Positions 18,984-39,901 are shown, numbered from the stretch's first letter. The stretch: DNA of 64,000 bases from an uncultured Dehalococcoidia bacterium (GCA_958296445.1 OY282565.1:1565570-1629569), one strand, 5' to 3'. A program made the numbers and translations. The notes: generated by a model not told the origin, from the sequence alone.

Positions 18984-19550
18984 CTATGCTTGCTGAAAAA
19001 TCTGGGATAGGGGCAGATCCAGCCCCGGGAGGGTTGTTGACTGGATAGTTTCGCCGGGGCCGTGGATTCGTAGCCGTTGCCATTCTCCGTTTTGCAGTTG
19101 CAAGACCTCTACGGTTTGGGCTTGGGGGGAGACTAGCCAGCATTCTAGGACGCCGATTTGGGCGTAGTCGGACAGCTTGCCCTTGATTTCGGCCCGGGTG
19201 TTGCCGGGGGAAAGGATTTCTACTACTAGGTCGGGGGCGCCGTGAATCCGGTCGTCTTGGACGATGTTGGCTCTTTGGTTGCTTATGAACAGCAGGTCGG
19301 GCTGGCGGGTGCGCAGGGGGTCGCGTTGTATGATGATGTCTAGGGGGGCGTACAGTACTTCGCCCAACCCGCGCTCGCTGACGAATTGGTGGACAGGCAG
19401 GTAGATTTTGGCGGAGGTTCGCTGATGGTAGATGTTGGGCGCGGCGGACATAATCACTTCGCCGTCCACGATGTCGAAGCGCAACATTGTTTCAGGCTCG
19501 TTGAGGTATTCTTGATAGGTGAGTTTGGTTCCGGTTTGCAGGGTGGTCAT
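18984..19550 (-). CDS. Uma2-family (DUF820) putative endonuclease, solitary copy
   Basis: 'RQPDLLFI...APDLVVEILSPGNTRAEIKGKLSDYAQIGVLECWLV' is the typical Uma2 PD-(D/E)xK-like core. Confidence 0.8.
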   Translation of the reverse strand: MTTLQTGTKLTYQEYLNEPETMLRFDIVDGEVIMSAAPNIYHQRTSAKIYLPVHQFVSERGLGEVLYAPLDIIIQRDPLRTRQPDLLFISNQRANIVQDDRIHGAPDLVVEILSPGNTRAEIKGKLSDYAQIGVLECWLVSPQAQTVEVLQLQNGEWQRLRIHGPGETIQSTTLPGLDLPLSQIFQQA

Positions 19551-27723: not shown

Positions 27724-28977
27724 TTACTGCCAGCCGTTGGCGTATTCCCCGGTCATCAGCAGGGGGCCGTCGAGGTTGACGAGCTGGTTTTCGATTTCGC
27801 GGAGCAGGCCGTCGAGGTTCCAGCCTTTTTGCGCCGAGACCAGGACGCCGGGCGCCGCGTCTTGGTTCCAAGGGGCGGCGATGCCGGACGGGGACGGGGG
27901 CGGGGCGGCCTGGGTGTTGCCGGGGGTTGCGGCCGGGTTGTCGGCGGGGGGCAGCAAGTCCATTTTATTTATGACAAGCAGGCGGGGGCGGCGGCCTAGG
28001 CCCAGCTCGTCTAGGGTTTGCTCGACTACTTCGGTCTGCTCCGGGGCTTTGGGGTGGGAGACGTCAATGACGTGGAGGAGGACGTCGGCGCGGTCGAGTT
28101 CGTCGAGGGTGGCGCGGAAGGCGGCGATGACGTTGGGGGAGAGCTTTTGGATGAAGCCGACGGTGTCGCTGAGGAGGAGGGGGGCGCCGGAGGGCAGCCG
28201 GACGCGGCGGGTGACGGGGTCGAGGGTGGAAAAGAGCTGGTCGGCGGCTAGGGAGGGGGCGCCATTGGCGGCGGCGGAGCCGGGGGGAATCAAAGCGTTG
28301 AACAGGGTGCTTTTGCCGGCGTTGGTGTAGCCGACTAGGGTGGCCATGGGGATGGCCGATTTCCGGCGGCGGTCCATATGCAGGGTGCGGCGGCGGCGCA
28401 CGCCGTCCAGTTCGGAGCGTATTTTCTGGATGCGGCGGCGAACTAGGCGGCGGTCGGTTTCGATCTGGGTTTCGCCGGGGCCGCGGGTGCCGATGCCGCC
28501 GCCCAAGCGTTCTAGGTGGGACCACTGGCCGGCGAGCCGGGGGAGCAGGTATTCGTGCTGGGCCAGCTCCACTTGGAGCTTGCCTTCGTAACTGGAGGCG
28601 TGGCGTCCGAATACGTCAAGAATCAGGGCGGTGCGGTCTATGACTTTTACGCCCTTTTGCTCGCCCGGCCTAGGGGAAAGGGTTGAGGCTAGGGCGGCTT
28701 CTAGGTTCCGTTGCTGGGTGGGGGTTAGTTCGTCGTCAAAGATTACGACGCCGGCGGATTCTTGTCTTATTATGTCGCGCAGTTCGTCGAGCTTGCCTTT
28801 GCCGACGTAGGTGGGGGTGAGGCGGTCGGTCCGCTGGCTGATGACGCCGGCCACCTCGGCCCCGGCCGACTCGGTGAGGTGGCGCAGTTCGCCTAGGGTG
28901 TCGTCCAGGGTCCAAAGCTGGTCGCGGCCCTTTAATTCGACGGCTACTAGGATGGCGCGTTCCCGCTCGGGGGACAC
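27724..28977 (-). CDS. hflX: GTPase HflX
   Basis: HflX N-terminal domain 'RAILVAV...EELRHL', a '[19 protein letters not shown]' segment, G1 '[16 protein letters not shown]' and G4 'NKMD'. Confidence 0.85.
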
Positions 28978-29070
28978 GTCAACAAGCCGCGCGGCCTTGG
29001 CCGCCCGTTTGGGGGTCTCCGGGTTATGTATGGTAGCCGGGGCTTGGCGCGGTTTGGACTTGGCGATGGG

Positions 29071-30249
29071 CTAACCTCCTTGGGGGGCGGGAATCGTCCA
29101 CGCTTCGATGCGCTGGCAGCCCTTTTCCACTTGTTCGTCGGGGGTGGTCAGGGACAAACGGATGTAGCCCTCTCCGTAGCGGCCATAGCTGGAGCCGGGG
29201 GTGACTACTACGTCTAGGTCTTCGAGCAGGCGTTGGGCGAACTCGGCGGAGGTGAAACCGGGGGGGACTTTGGCCCAGATATACAGGCTGGCCCGGGGGA
29301 CGTCAACTTCCATTCCGGCGTTGCGGACGGCCTGCACTACTCGGTCGCGGCGGCGCTGGTAGATTTCCACGTTGTCGGTGACGCAGTCTTGGGGGCCGGT
29401 CAAGGCTTCGATCGCCATTTCCTGGACTGCCTGGGGGACGCCGGAGTCTAGGTTGGCTTTGATTTGGAACAGGGCGCGAATCATATCGGCGTTGCCGACG
29501 GCCATGCCGATGCGCCAGCCGGTCATATTGTAGGTTTTGGACAGGGAATGGAACTCGATGCCGATGTCTCTGGCGCCGTCCACTTGCAGGTAGCTGGCGG
29601 CCTGATAGCCGTGGTAGCCGACTTCGCTGTAGGCGGCGTCGTGGAGCAGGGCGATGTCGTTTTCGCGGCAGAAGGCGGCGGCGGCGGCGAGGTCTTCGGC
29701 GCTGGCGACGGCGCTGGTGGGGTTGTTGGGGTAGTTGAGCCACATCACTTTGGCGGCGCGGGCGATGTCGGTGGGGATGGCGTCCAGCTCGGGCAGCCAT
29801 CCGTTGCTTTCGTAGAGGGGCATTATGTAACTTTCGGCTCCGGCGAACATCGTGCCGACGCCGTAGACGGGATAGGCCGGGTCGGGAACTAGGGCGATGT
29901 CGCCGGGGTCGAGGAAGCAGAAGGCGGCGTGGCCGATGCCTTCCTTGGCGCCAATCAGGGGGAGAACTTCGGTGTCCGGGTCGAGCTTTACGCCGAAGCG
30001 GATGTCGTACCAGTGGGCGATGGCGCGGCGCATTTCGGGCAGGCCGTCGGTTTCGGGGTAGCGGTGGTTGGGGGGATGCTGGGAGGCGGTCAACAGCCGG
30101 TCTATGATGGGCTGCGGCGTGGGGATGTCGGGGTCGCCGATGCCGAAGGTGACGACGTCGGCGCCGGCGGCCCGCTTGGCCGCGATGATGCGGGAGATTT
30201 CGACGAAGGGATAGGGTGCCAGTTTGCCCAAGCGGTCGGAGAATTTCAT
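29071..30249 (-). CDS. dapL: LL-diaminopimelate aminotransferase (DapL-type class I aminotransferase)
   Basis: 'MKFSDRLGKLAPYPFVEISRIIAAKRAAGADVVTFGIGDPDIPTP' and 'SLSKTYNMTGWRIG' (PLP lysine). Confidence 0.75.
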   Translation of the reverse strand: MKFSDRLGKLAPYPFVEISRIIAAKRAAGADVVTFGIGDPDIPTPQPIIDRLLTASQHPPNHRYPETDGLPEMRRAIAHWYDIRFGVKLDPDTEVLPLIGAKEGIGHAAFCFLDPGDIALVPDPAYPVYGVGTMFAGAESYIMPLYESNGWLPELDAIPTDIARAAKVMWLNYPNNPTSAVASAEDLAAAAAFCRENDIALLHDAAYSEVGYHGYQAASYLQVDGARDIGIEFHSLSKTYNMTGWRIGMAVGNADMIRALFQIKANLDSGVPQAVQEMAIEALTGPQDCVTDNVEIYQRRRDRVVQAVRNAGMEVDVPRASLYIWAKVPPGFTSAEFAQRLLEDLDVVVTPGSSYGRYGEGYIRLSLTTPDEQVEKGCQRIEAWTIPAPQGG

Positions 30250-30337
30250 CTTGGCGGCCTCTGTTGCTTAATTATTGTGGGATTGCGGGGTTTGGATTAA
30301 ACCGGCGATGGGTTGGATGACACGGTTGGCGCTTTCG

Positions 30338-30925
30338 CTAGGCCAGTAGCGGGCCGAAAATGTTGGCTATGGATAGGGCGAAGCCGGGGAGGATTTGGGA
30401 TTGGAGGGTTTGGCCCATTGTGTAGGTGGCTATGGTGGTTGCGGATTGGGGGGTTAGGCGCAGGACTTCGATTGTGCGGGCGGGGAAGTTTACCAGCCAG
30501 CATTCCGGGACGCCTATGCTGCGGTAGTCGGATAGCCGTTGCGTTATGTCGCGGCGGGTGTTGCTGGGGGAAAGAACCTCGACTACTAGCAGCGGGGGGC
30601 GTTCTAGGAAGGGGCGGCCTACTAGGTCGGACGGGCGGGTTATGCCGGTCAATTCGGCGTTCACTACCAGAATATCCGGCTGGCGGACTCGTAAGGGTTC
30701 CCGTTGAATTAGCACGTCGCACGGGGCCGTTAGCACTATGCCGAGATTCCTTTCCCGCACAAATGGCGAGAGCTGCGTCGCAATCTCAAATTCAAGCCAG
30801 GGGTGTTCACCCATTGGGCCGGGGGGCATTAGCAGGACTCCGTCCACAACCTCGCAGCGTTGTTTGGTTTCGGGTAGGGCTTGCCATTGGTCGAAGGTTA
30901 ATTTTTTGGTGCTTGTGGTGGTCAT
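30338..30925 (-). CDS. Uma2-family (DUF820) putative endonuclease, array copy 1 (most downstream in transcription)
   Basis: 588 nt. Starts MTTTSTKKLTFDQWQALPETKQRCEVVDG. Core 'RQPDILVV...LLVVEVLSPSNTRRDITQRLSDYRSIGVPECWLV'. ATG at 30925. Confidence 0.8.
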   Translation of the reverse strand: MTTTSTKKLTFDQWQALPETKQRCEVVDGVLLMPPGPMGEHPWLEFEIATQLSPFVRERNLGIVLTAPCDVLIQREPLRVRQPDILVVNAELTGITRPSDLVGRPFLERPPLLVVEVLSPSNTRRDITQRLSDYRSIGVPECWLVNFPARTIEVLRLTPQSATTIATYTMGQTLQSQILPGFALSIANIFGPLLA

Positions 30926-30942
30926 TGGGTTGTTTCCTGCTG

Positions 30943-31530
30943 CTATTTTAGGAGTGGGCCGAAAATGTTGGCTATGGGTAGGGCGAAGCCGGGCAGGATT
31001 TGGGATTGGAGGGTGTCGGCTATGCCGTAGGTGGCGATGGTGGTTGCGGTGTCGGGGGTTAGGCGCAGGACTTCGATTGTTCGGGCGGGGAAATCGGCCA
31101 GCCAGCACTCGGGGACGCCTATGCTGCGGTAGTCGGCCAGGCGTTGCGTTATGTCGCGGCGGGTGTTGCTGGGGGACAGGACTTCTACCACCAGCAGCGG
31201 GGGGCGTTCTAGGAAGGGGCGGCCTACTAGGTCGGACGGGCGGGTTATGCCGGTTAATTCGGCGTTCACTACCAGAATATCGGGTTGGCGGACTCGTAAG
31301 GGTTCCCGTTGAATCAGGACGTCGTAGGGGGCCGTTAGCACTATGCCGAGATCCCTTTCCCTCACAAATGGCGAGAGATGCCTCACGATTTCTAGGCCAA
31401 GCCATTGGTGTTCACCCATTGGGCTGGGGGGCATTAGCAGGACTCCGTCCACAACCTCGCAGCGTTGGTTGGTTTCGGGTAGGGCTTGCCATTGGTCGAA
31501 GGTTAATTTTTTGGTGCTGATGGTGGTCAT
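30943..31530 (-). CDS. Uma2-family putative endonuclease, array copy 2
   Basis: 588 nt, same frame architecture. ATG at 31530. A 17-nt spacer with AGGAAA lies upstream. Confidence 0.8.
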   Translation of the reverse strand: MTTISTKKLTFDQWQALPETNQRCEVVDGVLLMPPSPMGEHQWLGLEIVRHLSPFVRERDLGIVLTAPYDVLIQREPLRVRQPDILVVNAELTGITRPSDLVGRPFLERPPLLVVEVLSPSNTRRDITQRLADYRSIGVPECWLADFPARTIEVLRLTPDTATTIATYGIADTLQSQILPGFALPIANIFGPLLK

Positions 31531-31547
31531 TGGGTTGTTTCCTGCGG

Positions 31548-32135
31548 CTATTTTAGGAGTGGGCCGAAAATGTTGGCGATGGGTAGGGCGAAGCCGGGGA
31601 GGATTTGGGATTGGAGGGTGTCGGCTATGCCGTAGGTGGCGATGGTGGTTGCGGATTGGGGGGTTAGGCGCAGGACTTCGATTGTGCGGGCGGGGAAGTT
31701 TACTAGCCAGCACTCGGGGACGCCTATGCTGCGGTAGTCGGCCAGCTTTTCCTGAATCTGGCGGCGGGTGTTGCTGGGGGACAGTATTTCCACTACCAGG
31801 TCGGGGGGCGATTCGATGCGCTGTATGTCGGCTAGGTCGGATTCACGCCTGACGCCAGCGCGGGCGGCGCTTAGGTAGAAAATGTCCGGTTGCCTCACCC
31901 GCAGGGGTTCTTTGCTAATCAGCACATCGCACGGGGCCATTATCGCTAGGCCCAAGCCATTTTCTTCTACGAAAAGCGATACGGGCCTGATTATCCGAAG
32001 TCCAAGTATCTGGTGTTCGGGTGTTGGGCTGGGGGGCATTAGCAGGACTCCGTCCACAACCTCGCAGCGTTGCTTGGTTTCGGGTAGGGCTTGCCATTGG
32101 TCGAAGGTTAATTTTTTGGTGCTGATGGTGGTCAT
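31548..32135 (-). CDS. Uma2-family putative endonuclease, array copy 3
   Basis: 588 nt. Carries the central variant 'FYLSAARAGVRRESDLADIQRIESPPDLVVEILSPSN'. Confidence 0.8.
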   Translation of the reverse strand: MTTISTKKLTFDQWQALPETKQRCEVVDGVLLMPPSPTPEHQILGLRIIRPVSLFVEENGLGLAIMAPCDVLISKEPLRVRQPDIFYLSAARAGVRRESDLADIQRIESPPDLVVEILSPSNTRRQIQEKLADYRSIGVPECWLVNFPARTIEVLRLTPQSATTIATYGIADTLQSQILPGFALPIANIFGPLLK

Positions 32136-32152
32136 TGGGTTGTTTCCTGCGG

Positions 32153-32740
32153 CTATTTTAGGAGCGGGCCGAAAATGTTGGCTATGGGTAGGGCGAAGCC
32201 GGGGAGGATTTGGGATTGGAGGGTTTGGCCCATTGTGTAGGTGGCGATGGTGGTTGCGGCTTCGGGGGTTAGGCGCAGGACTTCGATTGTTCGGGTGGGG
32301 AAATCGGCCAGCCAGCACTCGGGGACGCCTATGCTGCGGTAGTCGGCTAGGCGTTGCGTTATGTCGCGGCGGGTGTTGCTGGGGGAAAGGACTTCTACCA
32401 CCAGCAGCGGGGGGCGTTCTAGGAAGGGGCGGCCTACTAGGTCGGATGGGCGGGTTATGCCGGTCAATTCGGCGTTCACTACCAAGACATCGGGTTGGCG
32501 GACTCGTAAGGGTTCCCGTTGAATTAGCACGTCGTAGGGCGCGGATAGGGCGATGCCTAGCCCGTTGTCCCTTACGAATGGTCTGAGACTTAGCAGAATT
32601 TCATCGGCTATCCAGGGGTGTTCACCCATTGGGCCGGGGGGCATTAGCAGGACTCCGTCCACAACCTCGCAGCGTTGTTTGGTTTCGGGTAGGGCTTGCC
32701 ATTGGTCGAAGGTTAATTTTTTGGTGCTTGTGGTGGTCAT
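32153..32740 (-). CDS. Uma2-family putative endonuclease, array copy 4
   Basis: 588 nt. Has a unique segment 'GPMGEHPWIADEILLSLRPFVRDNGLGIALSAPY'. Confidence 0.8.
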   Translation of the reverse strand: MTTTSTKKLTFDQWQALPETKQRCEVVDGVLLMPPGPMGEHPWIADEILLSLRPFVRDNGLGIALSAPYDVLIQREPLRVRQPDVLVVNAELTGITRPSDLVGRPFLERPPLLVVEVLSPSNTRRDITQRLADYRSIGVPECWLADFPTRTIEVLRLTPEAATTIATYTMGQTLQSQILPGFALPIANIFGPLLK

Positions 32741-32757
32741 TGGGTTGTTTCCTGCCG

Positions 32758-33345
32758 CTATTTTAGGAGCGGGCCGAAAATGTTGGCTATGGGTAGGGCG
32801 AAACCGGGGAGGATTTGGGATTGGAGGGTGTCGGCTATGCCGTAGGTGGCGATGGTGGTTGCGGCTTCGGGGGTTAGGCGCAGGATTTCGATTGTCCGGG
32901 TGGGGAAGTTTACCAGCCAGCATTCTAATACGCCGATGCTGCGGTAGTCGGCCAGCTTTTCCTGAATTTGGCGGCGGGTGTTGCTGGGGGAAAGTATTTC
33001 CACCACCAAGTCGGGGGGCGATTCGATGCGCTGTATGTCGGCTAGGTCGGATTCACGCCTGACGCCAGCGCGGGCGGCGCTTAGGTAGAAAATATCCGGT
33101 TGCCTTACCCGCAGGGGTTCTTTGCTAATCAGGACATCGCACGGGGCCATTATCGCTAGGCCCAAGCCATTTTCTTCTACGAAAAGCGATACGGGCCTGA
33201 TTATCCGAAGTCCAAGTATCTGGTGTTCGGGTGTTGGGCTGGGGGGCATTAGCAGGACTCCGTCCACAACCTCGCAGCGTTGTTTGGTTTCGGGTAGGGC
33301 TTGCCATTGGTCGAAGGTCAATTTTTTGGTGCTTGTGGTGGTCAT
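32758..33345 (-). CDS. Uma2-family putative endonuclease, array copy 5
   Basis: 588 nt. Its central part is nearly identical to copy 3. Confidence 0.8.
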   Translation of the reverse strand: MTTTSTKKLTFDQWQALPETKQRCEVVDGVLLMPPSPTPEHQILGLRIIRPVSLFVEENGLGLAIMAPCDVLISKEPLRVRQPDIFYLSAARAGVRRESDLADIQRIESPPDLVVEILSPSNTRRQIQEKLADYRSIGVLECWLVNFPTRTIEILRLTPEAATTIATYGIADTLQSQILPGFALPIANIFGPLLK

Positions 33346-33362
33346 TGGGTTGTTTCCTGCGG

Positions 33363-33950
33363 CTATTTTAGGAGCGGGCCGAAAATGTTGGCTATGGGTA
33401 GGGCGAAGCCGGGGAGGATTTGGGAGCTTAGGGTGTCGGCTATGCCGTAGGTGGCGATGGTGGTTGCGGATTCGGGGGTTAGGCGCAGGACTTCGATTGT
33501 CCGGGCGGGGAAGTTTACTAGCCAGCATTCGGGGACGCCGATGCTGCGGTAGTCGGCCAGGCGTTGCGTTATGTCGCGGCGGGTGTTGCTGGGGGAAAGG
33601 ACTTCGACTACTAGCAGCGGGGGGCGTTCTAGGAAGGGGCGGCCTACTAGGTCGGACGGGCGGGTTATGCCGGTCAATTCGGCGTTCACTACTAGGACAT
33701 CCGGTTGGCGAACTCGTAAGGGTTCCCGTTGAATCAGCACGTCGTAGGGGGCCGTTAGCACTATGCCGAGATCCCTTTCCCGCACAAATGGCGAGAGATG
33801 CCTCACGATTTCTAGGCCAAGCCAGGGGTGTTCACCCATTGGGCTGGGGGGCATTAGCAGGACTCCGTCCACAACCTCGCAGCGTTGTTTGGTTTCGGGT
33901 AGGGCTTGCCATTGGTCGAAGGTTAATTTTTTGGTGCTGATGGTAGTCAT
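33363..33950 (-). CDS. Uma2-family putative endonuclease, array copy 6
   Basis: 588 nt. Its central part is close to copy 2. Confidence 0.8.
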   Translation of the reverse strand: MTTISTKKLTFDQWQALPETKQRCEVVDGVLLMPPSPMGEHPWLGLEIVRHLSPFVRERDLGIVLTAPYDVLIQREPLRVRQPDVLVVNAELTGITRPSDLVGRPFLERPPLLVVEVLSPSNTRRDITQRLADYRSIGVPECWLVNFPARTIEVLRLTPESATTIATYGIADTLSSQILPGFALPIANIFGPLLK

Positions 33951-33967
33951 TGGGTTGTTTCCTGCTG

Positions 33968-34555
33968 CTATTTTAGGAGCGGGCCGAAAATGTTGGCGAT
34001 GGGTAGGGCGAAGCCGGGGAGGATTTGGGATTGGAGGGTTTGGCCCATTGTGTAGGTGGCGATGGTGGTTGCGGATTCGGGGGTTAGGTGCAGGACTTCG
34101 ATTGTGCGGGCGGGGAAGTTTACCAGCCAGCATTCTAATACGCCTATGCTGCGGTAGTCGGCTAGTTTTTCCGTTATGTCGCGGCGGGTGTTGCTGGGGG
34201 ACAGTATTTCCACCACTAGGTCGAGGGGCGATTGGATAAGCTGTATGCCAGCTAGGTCGGACTCGCGTCTTACGCCAGCGCGGGCGGCGCTTAGGTAGAA
34301 AATATCCGGTTGCCTTACCCGCAGGGGTTCCTTGCTAATCAGTACATCGCACGGGGCCATTATCGCTACGCCTAGCTCTCTTTCCCGCACAAACGGGGAG
34401 AGCTGCATCGCAATGTCAAGGCGAAGTATCTGATACTCAAGGGTTGGGTTGGGCGGCATTAGCAGGATTCCGTCCACAACCTCGCAGCGCTGCTTGGTTT
34501 CCGGCAACGCTTGCCATTCGTCGAATGTCAGCCTTTTGGCGCTGGCAGGGTTCAT
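33968..34555 (-). CDS. Uma2-family putative endonuclease, array copy 7 (first in transcription; most divergent N-terminus)
   Basis: 588 nt. Starts MNPASAKRLTFDEWQALPETKQRCEVVDGILLMPP. Its ATG (34553-34555) overlaps the dapF stop as TGATG. Confidence 0.8.
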   Translation of the reverse strand: MNPASAKRLTFDEWQALPETKQRCEVVDGILLMPPNPTLEYQILRLDIAMQLSPFVRERELGVAIMAPCDVLISKEPLRVRQPDIFYLSAARAGVRRESDLAGIQLIQSPLDLVVEILSPSNTRRDITEKLADYRSIGVLECWLVNFPARTIEVLHLTPESATTIATYTMGQTLQSQILPGFALPIANIFGPLLK

Positions 34556-35406
34556 CAGACAGGCCAGTCTCCGGTGAATACTTCGGTGGCGGGGCCTTCC
34601 ATTATTACTTCGCCTGCGCCGTCCCAGGTTATGGTTAGGGGGCCGCCGGGTAGGGTTATGTTTACTGTGTCGGGGCAGTGGTTGGATAGGCGGGCGGCTA
34701 CGGCTATGGCGCAGGCGCCGGTGCCGCAGGCTAGGGTTTCGCCGCTGCCGCGTTCCCAGACCCGGGCGGTTAGCTTGCCGGGGGCGTCTAGGTTGACAAT
34801 CTCAAAGTTGACGCGGCGGGGAAAGATGGGGTGATGCTCTACTTTGGGGCCGATGGTGTGCAGGGGGAAGTCGGCTACGGGCTGGCTGATGAAGGTTACG
34901 GCGTGGGGGTTGCCCATCGAAACGAAGCTTAGGGGGAGGTCGTAGCCGTCTATCGTAAAGGGGTGTTCCAGCACCGGGGGCGGGGGTTCGCCGTCTAGGG
35001 CTACCGGAATTTGGGCGGGTTCAAGGATGGGGGCGCCCATTGCCACCCGGGCGCCGGTGATGCGGGAGCCGCCGTTGGCGTAGGTGGGGGTGACGGTGCG
35101 GATGCCGGCCAGGGTTTCGACGGTGAGGCTGCCGCTAGGGGGGGCGGCGATGTCGCGCTCGATGGCGTATTTGGCGAAACAGCGGATGCCGTTGCCGCAC
35201 ATTTCGCCTTGGGAGCCGTCGGCGTTGAACATTATCATCTTTAGGTCGGCTATGCCGGAGTCGGCAATGAGAATCAGGCCGTCGCTGCCGACGCCGAAAT
35301 GCCGGTCGCTCATGCGGCGGGACAGTTCGGGCCAGTTTTGTTCTTGGGAGCGGGCGTCTATATATATGTAGTCGTTGCCCGCGCCTTGCATTTTGGTGAA
35401 TTGCAT
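34555..35406 (-). CDS. dapF: Diaminopimelate epimerase
   Basis: 'MQFTKMQGAGNDYIYID...FGVGSDGLILI...FNADGSQGEMCGNGIRC...ERGSGETLACGTGACA'. Both catalytic Cys contexts are present. Start was moved to ATG 35406. Confidence 0.9.
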   Translation of the reverse strand: MQFTKMQGAGNDYIYIDARSQEQNWPELSRRMSDRHFGVGSDGLILIADSGIADLKMIMFNADGSQGEMCGNGIRCFAKYAIERDIAAPPSGSLTVETLAGIRTVTPTYANGGSRITGARVAMGAPILEPAQIPVALDGEPPPPVLEHPFTIDGYDLPLSFVSMGNPHAVTFISQPVADFPLHTIGPKVEHHPIFPRRVNFEIVNLDAPGKLTARVWERGSGETLACGTGACAIAVAARLSNHCPDTVNITLPGGPLTITWDGAGEVIMEGPATEVFTGDWPV

Positions 35407-35961
35407 TGGGGTGGGCTCCTTTTGTGGCGTTGGCCTTTTTGGCCCCCTGAGCGGAGCGGATGGTCTCACTGCTCAGGGGTGGGATTCTTCGCTTTGCTCA
35501 GAATGACAGGGTTTTGCTCAGTGGCGGGGTTTGCATTTTGGTGAATTGCATTGGGGTGGACTCCTTTTGGGGCGTTGGCCTTTTTGCTGCCCTGTCCCCT
35601 GTGTCGCCCTGAGCGGAGCGGAGGGTCTCACTGGCCAAGGTGAGATTCTTCGCTTTGCTCAGAATGACAGGGTTTGCTCGGTGGCGGGGTTTGCTTGGGA
35701 TGATGGGGTTTGCTCGTTGCCCGCGCCTTGCATTTCAGAATGGCGGGGTTTGCTAGGTGGCGGGGTTTGCTTGGGATGATGGGGTTTGCTCGTTGCCCGC
35801 GCCTTGCATTTCAGAATGGCGGGGTTTGCTCGGTGGCGGGGTTTGCTTGGGATGACGGGGTTTGCTCGTTGCCCGCGCCTTGCATTTTGGTGAATTGCAT
35901 TGGGGTGGGCTCCTTTTGTTGGCCTGTGCGGGTTGGTGGTGGTGGGTTGGGGGTTGTTGGG
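35407..35961. repeat. Composite repeat region made of duplicated dapF 5'-end/leader segments interleaved with family-1 repeat cores
   Basis: 'ttgcattttggtgaattgcattggggtgg(g/a)ctcctttt' occurs at 35384-35425 (genuine), 35531-35575 and 35879-35920. The fragment 'gttgcccgcgccttgcatttcagaatggcgggg' occurs at 35715 and 35795. Confidence 0.85.
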
Positions 35962-36942
35962 TCATTGTATCACAGGGGGTTGGGGGGCTGGCGGTTGGAG
36001 GAATTGGGCGACGGCTTGGGCGGCTTGGTGGGGGAGGGCGGGGTTGGTGGCGCAGAGCCAGTGGATGCGGGGGTCGGTGGGCTTGAACCAGGTGTATTGG
36101 CGGCGGGCTAGGCGGTGGGTTTTTAGCTTGGTTTGCCGTATCGCTTGTTCTAAGGGCAGTGCGGCGGTTAGGTGTTGGCCCAGTTCGCGGTAGCCGGGGC
36201 TGTCTAGGGGGCCTTGGCCGGGGGGGAATCCGGCGGCTAGTAGTTGCTCTACTTCTTGGAGGAATCCGTCTTGCATCATTTGGTCAACGCGCCGGTCTAT
36301 GCGCTGGTAGAGGGCTTCGCGGGGCATCGTTAGCCCTAGGATTAGGGTTTGGGTTGGCGGCGTTGACGGGGTGGGGGGCGGCAGTTGGGAGGGGGGCTGG
36401 CCGGTAGCGTGGTAGATTTCTAGGGCGCGGATGACGCGGCGGACGTTGCGGGGGTCTAGGGCGGCGGCGCGGGTTGGGTCTATGGCGGCCAGTTGGCGGT
36501 GCAGGGCGTCGGGGCCTAGGCGGGTCGCTTCGGCTTCCAGTCGGGCCCGCAGTTCGGGGTTGGGGGGCGCGGGGGGGACGGGCTGGCCGTTGACTAGGCC
36601 CCAGACGTATTGCCCGGTGCCGCCGCAGACGATGGGCAGCTTTCCTCGCTGTCGGATGTTGCGCAGGGATTCGGCGGCGTATATAAGGAATAGGCCCAAG
36701 CCGAAATTGTCGGACGGGTCTAGGATGTCTACTAGGTGATGGGGGGCTTGGCGGCGTTCCGCGCCGGTGGGTTTGGCGGAGCCGATGGTCATGCCGCGGT
36801 AGACTTGGCGGCTGTCGGCGTTGATTATTTCGCCGTCGAACCGGCGGGCTAGGGCGACGGCGAGGGCCGTCTTGCCGACGGCGGTGGGGCCGACGATGCA
36901 GACTAGGGGGCCGGTTTGCGGTGGGGGGTGGTTGTCGGTCAT
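35962..36942 (-). CDS. miaA: tRNA dimethylallyltransferase
   Basis: 'CIVGPTAVGKTALAVALARRFDGEIINADSRQVYRGMTIGSAKP' is the typical MiaA N-terminus. Confidence 0.9.
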   Translation of the reverse strand: MTDNHPPPQTGPLVCIVGPTAVGKTALAVALARRFDGEIINADSRQVYRGMTIGSAKPTGAERRQAPHHLVDILDPSDNFGLGLFLIYAAESLRNIRQRGKLPIVCGGTGQYVWGLVNGQPVPPAPPNPELRARLEAEATRLGPDALHRQLAAIDPTRAAALDPRNVRRVIRALEIYHATGQPPSQLPPPTPSTPPTQTLILGLTMPREALYQRIDRRVDQMMQDGFLQEVEQLLAAGFPPGQGPLDSPGYRELGQHLTAALPLEQAIRQTKLKTHRLARRQYTWFKPTDPRIHWLCATNPALPHQAAQAVAQFLQPPAPQPPVIQ

Positions 36943-37149
36943 AGATGGCCTTTTGTCATTTTGCTCAGAGTGACAAAGGGGGCGCTCAGGGTGACAAAGG
37001 GGTTGCTCAGGGTAGTAAAGGGTTGCTCAGGCACTTTCTGTCATTCTGAGCAAAGAGAAGAATCTTGGCTTGAGCGGTGAGGCCCTTCGCTTTGCTCAGG
37101 GTGACAAAGGGTTGCTTAGGGTGACAAAGGGTTGATTTGGCGGCGGCGG

Positions 37150-38790
37150 CTAGTCGGGTTGGCCGAGTTTTGGTTGGCGGCCTTGGGGGGGGCGGGCGCG
37201 TTGGGCGGGCTGGTAGTCGGCGGGGCGGGGGGGCAGGTCGAAGTTTTGGCCGGACAGCATTTCGCCGATGGTGCGTAGCTGGATTTTGGGGAAATCGCGG
37301 GCCCATAGGTCGGAGTGGTAGAAACCGGCGCCGACGGCTTCTTGGCGCATATCCCGGGTGGGCGGTTCTAGGGATATGAACAGTCCCAGGGCGGCCTGCT
37401 CCCGTTCTACTACGCCTTTGAGGTCGCGGATTTGGGGGGATGATACCCGCCCGCCCTTGACTTGGATGACGGCTTTTTGGGGGGTGCGGCGCGGGCCGTC
37501 TAGGAAGTAGAGCATACCGTCAACGCCGCGGTCGGGGCCGCGCTTTTGTTCGGATTGCGGCTGCGCCTGTAGCAGGGATACGGCCCAGAACTGGAACTGG
37601 TAGGGGTCTTGTTCCCAGAGGGCGCGGGCGCTGCCTTCGTCCTGCGGTTCGCCTACTACGGCGTAATCGCGGCCGGCTTCTAGGGCGAAGGCGGTTTTCA
37701 GGCGGTTTTTCATCAGGGCTACGGCTAGGTGGGTTATGTCTATTCCCAGCCACTGGCGGCCGAGCTTGTGGGCGGCGGCTACCGCCGTGCCGCAGCCGCA
37801 GAACGGGTCAAGCACTACGTCGCCCTCGTTGGACGAGGCGCGGATGATGCGCTCTAGCAGGGCTTCGGGCTTTTGGGTGGGGTAGCCTAGTCGCTCTTTG
37901 GCTTGGGATGCGACTGCCCCTATGTCTGTCCATATATCTTGTAAAGGGATTCCCGGCATTTCGTCAAGGTATCTTTTATATGCCGGGACTGCTCCTGGCC
38001 GCGTCTGAACGATGCGGCCGGCGTCAATCAATTCCTGCATTCTTTCTTTGGAATAGCGCCAATAACGGGTGACTCCCATAACTTCATAGCTGGGGTTTCC
38101 TTTGGCTGCGCCGCCGGGCCCGGTTAGGTTATCCAATCTATAGCGGCGTCCGGTGTCGGGTTCCTCGTAGCGATAAGACTGGTCTACGTACTCTTGGTCG
38201 TATTGAGTATAGGTTGGGTTCCAAGTCCAGTTGGAAGTCTTGGTATAAAACAAAATCGTATCGTGAACCCGCCCGTGCTGCCGCCTGCCCTGCCGGGTGT
38301 CGCTGTGGGCGCTGGTGCGCTTCCAAGTTATATCGGTTCGGAAATTCTGTTGCCCAAACACGGTGTCCATAAGCAGTTTCAGGTAATGGCCGGCGGTGGG
38401 GTCGCAGTGGAGGTAGATGCTGCCGGTGGGTTTGAGGGCGCGGCGCAGTTCGACTAGGCGGGGGGCCATCATTGTGAGGTAGGCCATCATAGCGTTGCGG
38501 CCGATGAACTGGCGGAAGGCGGTAATCATATCCTTGACTGCGGGTGGGACGTTTGGGTTGGCGATTATGTCTTGCTCGAAGGTGTGTTCGGTTTCTTGGG
38601 TCCATTCCCAGGTGTCGGTGAAGGCGCGGATTTGGGCTGGGGAATCCTCGCCGGTTTTTTCGCGGAAGAGGACGTTGTAGGATGCGTTGGAGTTGAAGGG
38701 TGGGTCGAGGTAGACGAGGTCTACGGAGGCGTCGGGGACGCGCTCGCGGAGGACGGGTAGGTTGTCGCCGTAGAAGAGGGCGTTGGGCAT
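37150..38790 (-). CDS. Beta-class N4/N6 DNA methyltransferase fused to a C-terminal Mrr-like (PD-(D/E)xK) restriction-endonuclease domain
   Basis: '[16 protein letters not shown]' and '[26 protein letters not shown]'. C-terminus '[12 protein letters not shown]...[23 protein letters not shown]...GLFISL'. Start was moved to ATG 38790. N-terminal half is paralogous to 11707..13224. Confidence 0.8.
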
Positions 38791-39452
38791 CAGGGGGCCT
38801 CGCGGGCTAGGCGCTCGGCGTCGCGGATGTAGTCGGCGGTGTCGCGGATGTCGTGGATGAGCAGGTTGACCGGCTCGACGTTGCGCTCGACTACGGCGGT
38901 CTGGTAGATGTCGTGGGATATTGTGGCGTAGCGGCCTTTTATGGGCCGCAAGTCTTGGTTTTGCTCCCGGTTCTGCCAGACAAGGCGCGTCAGGCAGTCG
39001 TAAGTCCATTTTTCGTCGTCCGGGGTGGTTTCCACGCCGGTTCGGGCCAATATCAGGGCGTTGGTGGCCTGTAAAGCGGCGGCCCAAGCCTTTTCCGCCG
39101 ACTTGTGCAGGAGTTCGCGGTTCCAGAGTTGGTTGGCCTCATCCAAGTATTGGACGGCCTCGGAGTAGGTGGCGTGGGCCTTGGCAAACAGGTCGGTCAC
39201 TCGCTTGGTTTCCAGCATATTTGCGTTCTCCGGGTTTTGGCTGCCCAGGCTGCGTATTCCGGCTGAAGTTTGCCCGACGGTGGGCATCCGCCCGGTGCGG
39301 GCGAGGATCAGGGCGTCGGTGGCCCGCTTGGTGGCGCCCCAGGCGGCTTCGGCGGCGATGCGGTGCTTGCCGAGCTCCAGGATTTCGATGGCGTCGGCGT
39401 AGAGCGCCCAGGCGTCGGCGAAGATGGCGGCGGCTTGGTCGGGTTCTGGCAC
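38790..39452 (-). CDS. PaREP1/HEPN-like helical protein (one partial plus one full repeat)
   Basis: Two 'AxEAAWGA / [22 protein letters not shown]' signatures. GTG start at 39452, preceded by AGGAGA. An internal ATG at 39218 is an alternative start. The stop overlaps the methyltransferase ATG as TGATG. Confidence 0.5.
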
Positions 39453-39484
39453 GGGGTCTCCTAGGGTTTGGCTGGGACGGCGGT

Positions 39485-39901
39485 TCAGGGGGCCTCGCGG
39501 GCTAGGCGCTCGGCGTCGCGGATGTAGTCGGCGGTGTCGCGGATGTCGTGGATGGTGAAGTCCAGGGGGTCTACGCTGCCGTTGCATAGCACTAGGTCGA
39601 AAAGATAGACGGACAGGTGGGCGTACCTGTCTTTCAGATCCTCGAGCCCCGGAACTTCTTTGGCCAGGCGCGACAGCAAGCCATAGGTATCGGCGTCGCT
39701 GCCGGGTTTGGGTTCGATGCCGGTGCGGGCGAGAATCAGGGCGTTGGTGGCCTGGTTGGCGGCGGCCCACGCTTTTTCCGCTGATCTAAGCAGTTCGCGC
39801 TTGTCCCAATGCTTTGTTGCGTCGTCCAGCCGCGCTAGGGAATCCGCGCTATTGACGCGGGCTTCGTCCAGTAGAGCGACAACCTGTTTGGTTTTTAACA
39901 T
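39485..39901 (-). CDS. PaREP1/HEPN-like helical protein
   Basis: 138 aa. '[22 protein letters not shown]'. The last ~70 nt are identical to the 3' end of 38790..39452. Confidence 0.5.
   Translation of the reverse strand: MLKTKQVVALLDEARVNSADSLARLDDATKHWDKRELLRSAEKAWAAANQATNALILARTGIEPKPGSDADTYGLLSRLAKEVPGLEDLKDRYAHLSVYLFDLVLCNGSVDPLDFTIHDIRDTADYIRDAERLAREAP

Follow-up and report, generated by a model that had tools for sequence, protein, structure and literature searches.

Proteins of the Uma2 family occur as cassettes of paralogous genes in cyanobacteria, Thermus, and Chloroflexi (Feder & Bujnicki 2005, PMC551604; Makarova et al. 2009, PMC2701414), with tandem duplications of up to four consecutive genes and insertion sites that are essentially random (PMC551604; PMC2701414). 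The family, also termed DUF820, makes up more than 2% of the genes in some cyanobacteria and is expanded in Thermus and Chloroflexi. Makarova et al. (2009, PMC2701414) regard Uma2 as probably a solo toxin and state that it “mostly forms cassettes of paralogous genes”; in the literature the family has no demonstrated function and is also termed a selfish element, and our literature search found no Uma2 member with published nuclease activity. Here we describe seven tandem Uma2 genes on the minus strand of a 64,000-nucleotide (nt) stretch of DNA from an uncultured Dehalococcoidia bacterium (the window; GCA_958296445.1, OY282565.1:1565570–1629569), where they lie between the diaminopimelate epimerase gene, dapF, and the LL-diaminopimelate aminotransferase gene, dapL. 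Coordinates are positions in the whole window, and the copies are numbered along the plus strand, so that copy 7 is transcribed first and copy 1 last.

Tandem or dispersed bacterial paralogs that evolve in concert, through gene conversion and unequal crossing-over, are familiar from rRNA operons, tufA/tufB, and Helicobacter outer-membrane protein genes. As in those cases, the paralogs of the array are closer to one another than to between-genome orthologs in converted tracts, their relationships are mosaic, copy number changes, and the terminal repeats escape homogenization. Unlike in textbook concerted evolution, homogenization here is limited to the gene ends, and the core is split into old lineages under purifying selection. 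The array is also reminiscent of hsdS switching at phase-variable loci of the SpnD39III type, which combine inverted repeats and, in most cases, a tyrosine recombinase of their own with a single expressed gene and silent partial copies; in both, conserved repeats border variable modules that are re-assorted by recombination in the conserved parts. DUF820 genes together with toxin-antitoxin (TA) modules have been described inside the cyanobacterial hox hydrogenase operon (Kopfmann et al. 2016, PMC4963859). The present locus differs from that one in its host operon (dapF–dapL), in its phylum, and in the expansion of the gene into an array. It is similar in that a Uma2 gene sits within a housekeeping operon, sometimes beside a TA pair, which in single-copy relatives here is hicB/hicA-like.

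With the published Uma2 cassettes the array shares the family and the predicted PD-EXX-K active site. Unlike those cassettes, it occupies one locus that is kept across about 49 Dehalococcoidia loci with up to seven copies, and it joins concerted ends to cassette cores common to several species; exchange between copies is unreported for the published examples. Neither gene conversion in Uma2 arrays nor a dapF-linked Uma2 locus was found described in full-text literature searches. The array is a mosaic, its copy number has changed, its ends are genome-specific, and its cassette lineages are common to several species. We read it, with a probability of roughly 0.85, as a set of old, functionally distinct Uma2 paralogs whose ends have been homogenized by unequal crossing-over and gene conversion within a conserved dapF–dapL gene string.

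Mosaic relationships among the seven copies

Each of the seven intact genes has a 588-nt coding sequence (195 amino acids plus stop), and with a 17-nt spacer the array has a period of exactly 605 nt, without a single indel between units. This period was derived from the coordinates of the open reading frames (ORFs); Tandem Repeats Finder, with a longest period of 500, did not report the array. Every copy is full-length and in the same orientation, with a ribosome-binding site, a start codon, and a stop. In the alignment of the seven units, 227 of 605 positions are variable. The G+C content of the array is 0.56–0.59, versus 0.62–0.69 in the flanks.

The original prediction, drawn from alignment of the translations by eye, was that the copies are built from modules that reassort. 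In a proper alignment of the 605-nt units these modules persist, and the relationships among copies are incongruent from segment to segment. In the module proposed at residues ~36–70 (var1; nt 106–200), copies 3 and 5 are 0 nt apart, copies 2 and 6 are 3 nt apart, and copies 1, 4, and 7 are each distinct. The central module (nt 201–340, residues 68–113) separates copies 1, 2, 4, and 6 (V-type) from copies 3, 5, and 7 (F-type); of its 140 nt, 55–62 differ between the two groups and 4–15 within a group. The C-terminal patch (nt 501–520) instead groups copies 1, 4, and 7 (TYTMGQ) against copies 2, 3, 5, and 6 (TYGIAD), with 7 differences between groups and 0 within, and copy 7 does combine an F-type center with a TYTMGQ tail. 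Near-identity of both ends in copies 1–6 had also been proposed. This holds at the 5′ end, where over 105 nt copies 1–6 are 0–4 differences apart and copy 7 is 19–21 from all others, but not at the 3′ end (68 nt), where the outlier is copy 1 and not copy 7 (6–10 differences; the protein ends in LLA rather than LLK).

No single tree fits these data, as the original prediction had stated. The 147 parsimony-informative sites form blocks that are clustered along the gene and support conflicting splits: 54 sites separate copies 3, 5, and 7 from the rest, 19 separate copies 3 and 5 from the rest, and 8 separate copies 1, 4, and 7 from copies 2, 3, 5, and 6, while the groups {2,4}, {3,4,5}, and {5,7} are set apart from the rest by 5, 5, and 4 sites, respectively. 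Since the conflicting blocks comprise many sites and are clustered, recurrent mutation cannot be their source. The four-gamete test is failed by 2335 of 7021 biallelic site pairs, and the Hudson–Kaplan minimum number of recombination events (Rmin) is 24. The pairwise homoplasy index (PHI), which we implemented ourselves and assessed by permuting sites, has z values of −7.8 to −13.3 (p ≤ 0.0005), and a GENECONV-like longest-identical-tract test gives p < 0.01 in 19 of 21 copy pairs, with globally significant tracts in copies 3/5 (nt 66–210) and copies 1/6 (nt 259–345), although rate variation along the gene partly inflates both of these site-permutation tests. Because of this confounding, we place the main weight on the conflicting splits and on the comparison across genomes.

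Divergence at silent sites is distributed unevenly along the gene. Ratios of nonsynonymous to synonymous divergence (dN/dS) were calculated segment by segment by the method of Nei and Gojobori. Among the window copies, dS is 0.15–0.22 at both ends versus 0.7–0.8 in codons 36–113; the ends are therefore young at silent sites and not merely constrained, as gene conversion predicts and protein constraint alone does not. For this reason we regard simple serial duplication and divergence, with ends kept alike by protein constraint and no exchange, as hardly credible: the ends do encode well-conserved parts of the fold, and dN/dS is lowest there (0.16 in codons 1–35), but homogenized silent sites, many-site blocks for conflicting splits with their Rmin of 24, and ends that differ between species while matching within each genome all stand against it. 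In both variable and constant segments, dN/dS is 0.16–0.43 everywhere except the seven-codon tail patch, where a value of 1.57 comes from too few sites. Segments of the array genes are thus under purifying selection, positive selection is not demonstrable, as only the tail patch exceeds 1, and dN/dS below 1 nearly everywhere makes all copies look functional.

The pattern is most simply explained by RecA-type homologous recombination between misaligned direct repeats, in which unequal crossing-over would alter copy number and gene conversion would transfer tracts from unit to unit. Long near-identical blocks are present among the copies at nt 1–105 and about nt 400–588, with shorter ones internally. 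Exchange would start only in near-identical DNA, and because tracts would begin and finish in the conserved blocks, the diverged middles (residues 36–67 and 85–112) would be skipped or replaced whole and so behave as cassettes. Whole-cassette replacement is exemplified by the identity of copies 3 and 5 and the near-identity of copies 2 and 6 in var1. The array edges, 5′ of the first unit and 3′ of the last, would lack a homologous partner and escape homogenization (the edge effect expected of such arrays), which would account for the divergent 5′ end of copy 7 and 3′ end of copy 1. Recombination that homogenizes the ends while alternative internal cassettes persist, as originally proposed, is in agreement with the incongruent segments and uneven dS described above and with the genome-specific ends and the new joints in close relatives described below.

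The accompanying term “cassette shuffling” stands if it denotes passive homologous recombination between conserved blocks; as programmed switching it does not. Conserved blocks bordering variable modules, and modules re-assorted between close relatives, are also what would be seen with silent donor cassettes (pilE/pilS, vlsE), an invertase shufflon of the hsdS type, or a diversity-generating retroelement. Such programmed variation is nonetheless highly improbable here. In place of one expression site with truncated, promoterless donors there are seven complete ORFs, none of them truncated or silent. All units are direct, with 0 inverted repeats of at least 18 nt in 29800–35000, and neither a recombinase nor a reverse transcriptase is found among the scanned neighbors (hflX, AIR-synthase-like, PALP, dapL, dapF, miaA, methyltransferase–Mrr, PaREP1, TIM, and PGM). 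The variable sites involve all four bases, without adenine bias. Compared with hsdS loci, then, the copies are complete, direct, and co-oriented, the inverted repeats and the recombinase are lacking within these limits, and the family is unrelated.

Concerted ends and old cores across genomes

Two further assemblies (L001 and L081) have flanks 96–98% identical to the window and represent the same or a sister species. The shared locus contains seven copies in the window, four in L001, and three in L081. Over nt 84–183 (var1), unit D of L001 has 0 differences to window copy 4 and unit C has 0 to copies 3/5. In the L001 and L081 units, however, the window var1 cassettes are joined to other tails and neighboring segments: the copy-4 cassette is followed by a TYGIAD patch in L001 and L081 versus TYTMGQ in the window, and it forms the terminal LLA unit in both. 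The LLA end and downstream flank seen in window copy 1 also close the L001 and L081 arrays. As the same cassettes lie on different segments in genomes that are 96–98% identical, the exchange is recent. Between the dapF stop and the first copy, both relatives contain a 72-nt relic of a Uma2 3′ end with a degenerate spacer; the window has lost it. The L001 contig has frameshifts throughout, miaA and hflX included, which we read as sequencing errors.

These assemblies also bear on whether order, copy number, or joints could be chimeras of repeat strain variants. The source is a metagenome-assembled genome, and the 605-nt repeats have identical stretches of more than 100 nt. An assembly artifact is nevertheless very improbable, given that the same cassettes with nucleotide-identical tracts recur in the two independent assemblies from other samples, that the same architecture is present in more than 10 other genomes, mostly on megabase-scale contigs, and that the seven reading frames are intact and without indels.

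In a survey of one genome per species, for which homologue-bearing contigs were fetched, the string miaA–dapF–[Uma2]n–aminotransferase–hflX is present in 44 further Dehalococcoidia/Chloroflexota species genomes, with n = 1 in 26, 2 in 13, 3 in 3, 4 in 1, and 5 in 1. Four further contigs show the same synteny, bringing the other loci to about 48; beyond the near-conspecific pair, two more contigs have 4 and 5 copies. The seven copies of the window are the largest number among the loci compared. PHI also detects exchange in the L004, L082, and L083 arrays (p ≤ 0.001), and the close relatives L004 and L083, with five copies each, differ in content at positions 2–4.

Across 27 related genomes, the ratio of within- to between-genome identity is 1.2–1.6 at residues 1–25 and 141–195 and only 1.0–1.1 at residues 31–115. 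The ends are correspondingly genome-specific: every copy of L004 and L083 has MTTAGVKTLSFD...LGVYGMGDVLRS, and the window and L081 have MTT.STKKLTFDQW...IATY. Core lineages, by contrast, are common to several species (GEHPW[IV]ADEIL, SPTDEHQWLGFEIA, SPFGEH.W.I, VVNAELTGI...PPL, and FLSAARAGV...PPD). Copy 4 illustrates the reversal. Its amino acid identity to its own paralog, copy 3, is 97% at the N terminus, 38% in var1, 52% in the center, and 87% in the tail, versus 71%, 84%, 91%, and 57%, respectively, to the fourth copy of L004, from another species. At the termini, paralogs are 87–97% identical versus 57–74% for orthologous cassettes, and at residues 36–113 the same lineage is 84–91% identical across species versus 38–52% for the own paralog; in other species the copy-4 cassette lineage has 78–84% identity. 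Cassettes were typed across species by explicit pairwise tables, as single-linkage clustering chained everything and was uninformative.

Within one cassette lineage compared across species, the proportion of synonymous differences (pS) in codons 36–113 is 0.67–0.79, which is saturated, and that of nonsynonymous differences (pN) is 0.08–0.10. At the supposedly constant ends, pN across species is 0.13–0.23 and thus above that of codons 36–113. These values indicate that the core is variable between paralogs only, each lineage being old, strongly conserved, and under strong purifying selection, and that the ends evolve faster between species yet stay alike within a genome. Incompatible segments, within-genome identity above between-genome identity at the ends only and reversed in the core, silent-site homogenization, and copy-number change are all found at this locus; concerted evolution and birth-and-death evolution are mixed within one 588-nt gene.

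Predicted active site and probable role of the cassettes

Three copies were scanned against Pfam and match Uma2 (PF05685, “putative restriction endonuclease”) with E values of 2e-27 to 8e-33 and scores of 96–114 bits (gathering score, 27) over profile positions 2–171/172; the remaining four are 70–100% identical to these. The sequences thus place the array proteins in the Uma2 family (PF05685/COG4636/DUF820), with a predicted PD-(D/E)XK nuclease-like fold. NCBIfam has no model for the array protein. A profile of the copies matches the solved structures 9y1l (4e-42), 6okh, 3ot2, and 1wdj, all functionally uncharacterized, and an AlphaFold2 model of copy 3 (mean predicted local distance difference test score, 90.6) has significant Foldseek matches to the same four structures only (E = 8e-18 to 5e-10).

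The PD-EXX-K site predicted for the family consists of His, Asp, Glu, and a relocated Lys (Feder & Bujnicki 2005, PMC551604). D84 and E116 are present in 7/7 array copies and invariant across 89 related copies; H41 is present in 6/7 array copies and in 86/89 related ones. At residue 130, copies 3, 5, and 7 have Lys whereas the other four (1, 2, 4, and 6) have Arg; among the relatives 49 have Lys and 40 Arg. On the model, the var1 cassette forms a helix (residues 39–58) that carries His41, and the center cassette comprises a strand (residues 85–89), two short helices, and a loop that leads to the catalytic strand (residues 113–117). Residues 85–112 form an inserted segment that separates the PD strand from the catalytic Glu strand. 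Both cassettes are thereby modeled to flank the predicted active site. Given this placement and the long-term conservation of each lineage, the cassettes probably differ in substrate or partner specificity, and we infer that selection has kept the cassette lineages as paralogs with distinct functions.

F-type centers with Lys130 and V-type centers with Arg130 alternate in transcription order (F V F V F V V), and two-copy relatives often carry one center of each type. We do not build on the alternation or on the link between center type and residue 130, which is strict in this window only; across the family there are 20 cases of a V-type center with Lys and 11 of an F-type center with Arg, with the qualification that some distant copies, such as the second copy of L002, are assigned to the wrong type when the nearest window reference is used.

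A neutral account of the middles would leave the mosaic intact: recombination cannot start in diverged DNA, so that old differences would persist without functional difference. In its favor, V- and F-type centers differ at ~43% of nucleotides, a divergence at which homologous exchange could not initiate, the dN/dS values for cassette pairs stay below 1 (0.33–0.43), and several arrays hold recent near-identical duplicates (copies 3/5 and 2/6; L083 copies 3–5; L037 copies 2/3). We nonetheless consider it unlikely. The lineages are kept across species, with the low pN at saturated silent sites given above, and are more conserved than the ends. Whole-cassette replacement does occur, as in copy 3 = copy 5, so drift and conversion should have purged neutral variants. 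Finally, both cassettes flank the predicted active site.

Several observations weigh against reading the array as homogenized, functionally distinct paralogs. The predicted catalytic Lys130 is replaced by Arg in four copies, and His41 by Tyr in copy 7. The dN/dS values between paralog cassettes show long-term maintenance only; positive selection is not clear from them. Nor can exchange be detected in every array, as the four-copy array of L037 has no incompatible sites and a nonsignificant PHI. Unit order and number are those of this one assembly, and any expression, nuclease activity, or cellular role of the copies is putative. To these is added the partial inflation of the permutation tests already mentioned.

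All array copies match the PDC-S03 models of PADLOC (E = 1e-25 to 1e-31), a computational defense candidate for which a literature search found no experimental paper on defense. The locus is like PDC-S03 in the match of every copy and in the presence of a methyltransferase–Mrr fusion 2.6 kb upstream; for both, the defense role is a computational candidate only. A more far-reaching proposal, which we offer as speculative and rather doubtful, is that the paralogs form a repertoire of nuclease subunits whose distinct specificity cores, comprising the His41 helix and the PD-to-Glu insertion, are conserved by lineage. Conversion would keep the termini identical and each paralog thereby compatible with its fellows or with a common partner, which would allow mixed dimers and combinatorial target recognition, the whole serving as an innate-immunity or genome-policing module maintained by recombination.

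Genomic setting and significance

The dapF–array–aminotransferase stretch is flanked farther out by miaA and hflX (Table 1). The ATG of copy 7 and the TGA of dapF overlap by 1 nt (TGATG), and the remodeled N terminus of copy 7 (MNPASAKR versus MTTTSAK[KR]) is fused to the dapF stop. Minus-strand terminator-like sites were not found inside the array. Given the 17-nt spacers with a ribosome-binding site, the TGATG overlap, and the lack of such terminators, the seven Uma2 genes are most likely transcribed together with dapF and the aminotransferase gene as a single unit. A weak sigma-70-like match (T[AC]GCCA, 18-nt gap, TAAAAT; 9/12) ends six units, directly upstream of the ribosome-binding site of the next copy; internal transcription starts are possible, or the match reflects mere repetition of the unit. 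We did not accept it as evidence for internal promoters, since it recurs only because the unit recurs. An Rfam scan of 28000–37500 at E ≤ 0.1 gave no match, so that no known RNA element accounts for the conserved spacers or ends. Long plus-strand ORFs and 256-amino-acid, upstream-extended minus-strand ORFs were set aside as by-products of high G+C content; Pfam support and dN/dS < 1 hold for the 195-amino-acid frame only.

Table 1. Positions of the array, its units, and neighboring features, with related features in other contigs
Feature	Coordinates	Strand	Description	Evidence
Whole array	30338..34555	−	7 tandem Uma2 genes	ORFs and translations
Copy 7	33968..34555	−	first transcribed; own var1 cassette, F-type center, TYTMGQ tail, divergent 5′ end, Tyr for His41	Pfam Uma2 E = 2e-27
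Copy 6	33363..33950	−	var1 type common to copy 2, V-type center, TYGIAD tail	translation, segment distances
Copy 5	32758..33345	−	var1 identical to copy 3, F-type center, TYGIAD tail	copy 3/5 identity over nt 66–210
Copy 4	32153..32740	−	ADEIL var1 cassette, V-type center, TYTMGQ tail	translation, segment distances
Copy 3	31548..32135	−	var1 identical to copy 5, F-type center, TYGIAD tail	Pfam Uma2 E = 2.3e-31; AlphaFold2 model
Copy 2	30943..31530	−	var1 type common to copy 6, V-type center, TYGIAD tail	translation, segment distances
Copy 1	30338..30925	−	last transcribed; own var1 cassette, V-type center, TYTMGQ tail, divergent 3′ end (LLA)	Pfam Uma2 E = 8.3e-33
17-nt spacer	30926..30942	−	C[ACG]GCAGGAAACAACCCA with AGGAAA ribosome-binding site	upstream sequences
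Further spacer copies	31531–31547, 32136–32152, 32741–32757, 33346–33362, 33951–33967	−	17-nt spacer	upstream sequences
Sigma-70-like matches	within 30945–33999		ends of six units	
dapF	34555..35469	−	diaminopimelate epimerase, upstream anchor; likely true start ATG near 35406 (MQFTKMQ)	TIGR00652 E = 8.7e-79; Pfam DAP_epimerase
dapL	29071..30249	−	LL-diaminopimelate aminotransferase, downstream anchor	NF006756 575.6 bits vs cutoff 507
miaA–dapF spacer	35470–35960			
76-nt tandem repeats	35659–35887		three repeats, 96% match	
Dispersed 25-nt element	3331, 5954, 11692, 17995, 21532, 35483, 35644, 37040, 52011, 55473, 56067	10/11 −	GTCATTCTGAGCAAAGCGAAGAATC	11 copies in 64 kb vs 0 expected
Methyltransferase–Mrr fusion	37150–39087	−	645 amino acids, N6/N4 DNA methyltransferase and Mrr-type nuclease (type IIG-like)	
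PaREP1-like gene	38790–39770	−	adjoins the fusion gene	
Solo Uma2 paralog	18984–19550	−	188 amino acids	~43% identical to array copies
72-nt Uma2 relic	L001 9927–9998; L081 6717–6790		Uma2 3′ end and degenerate spacer	
87/69-amino-acid gene pair	L003 6603–7072; L016 6602–7071; L020 6603–7072; L033 6616–7085; L039 7313–7576			position before aminotransferase gene

The methyltransferase–Mrr fusion lies directly upstream of miaA, which places the Uma2 array close to restriction-type genes, and the pair it forms with the PaREP1-like gene is kept in L081–L083. In the spacer between miaA and dapF, each of the 76-nt tandem repeats includes a copy of the dapF 5′ start (AATGCAAGGCGCGGGCAACGA), and at three sites (near 35900, 35551, and 35407) a ribosome-binding site is followed by ATGCAATTCACCAAAATGCAA (MQFTKMQ); the dapF start has therefore been duplicated together with inserted repeat elements. 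Two copies of the dispersed element, which resembles repetitive extragenic palindromes or miniature inverted-repeat transposable elements, lie immediately upstream of dapF.

Elsewhere in the window, the solo Uma2 paralog is flanked by the genes for a thiamine pyrophosphate-dependent enzyme and a short-chain dehydrogenase and shares with the array units a 106-nt stretch at 77% nucleotide identity. In single-Uma2 relatives, the gap before the aminotransferase gene holds a pair of small genes (87 and 69 amino acids), which from their motifs we take to resemble a HicB-type antitoxin and a HicA-type toxin. Small selfish modules seem to use the dapF–dapL spacer as a site of insertion.

That tandem paralogs undergo gene conversion is textbook knowledge, and tandem Uma2 cassettes have already been published; what is new is this example, and its value is as an example and as a handle on an uncharacterized family rather than as a new principle. 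In compact form it shows one short bacterial gene in which some segments evolve in concert and others are maintained as lineages, with copy-number change visible between near-conspecific genomes. Should the array indeed be a specificity repertoire, a module of this kind would be fixed inside an essential lysine/peptidoglycan operon across a Dehalococcoidia clade and would offer a first way into the function of the large Uma2 family. The locus is in any case a natural experiment, in which 1 to 7 paralogs coexist at one conserved position, translationally coupled to dapF. Because the parts modeled to flank the active site form old, conserved lineages and the rest is homogenized, residues 36–67 and 85–112 are singled out as likely determinants of specificity, for which natural chimeras are at hand.

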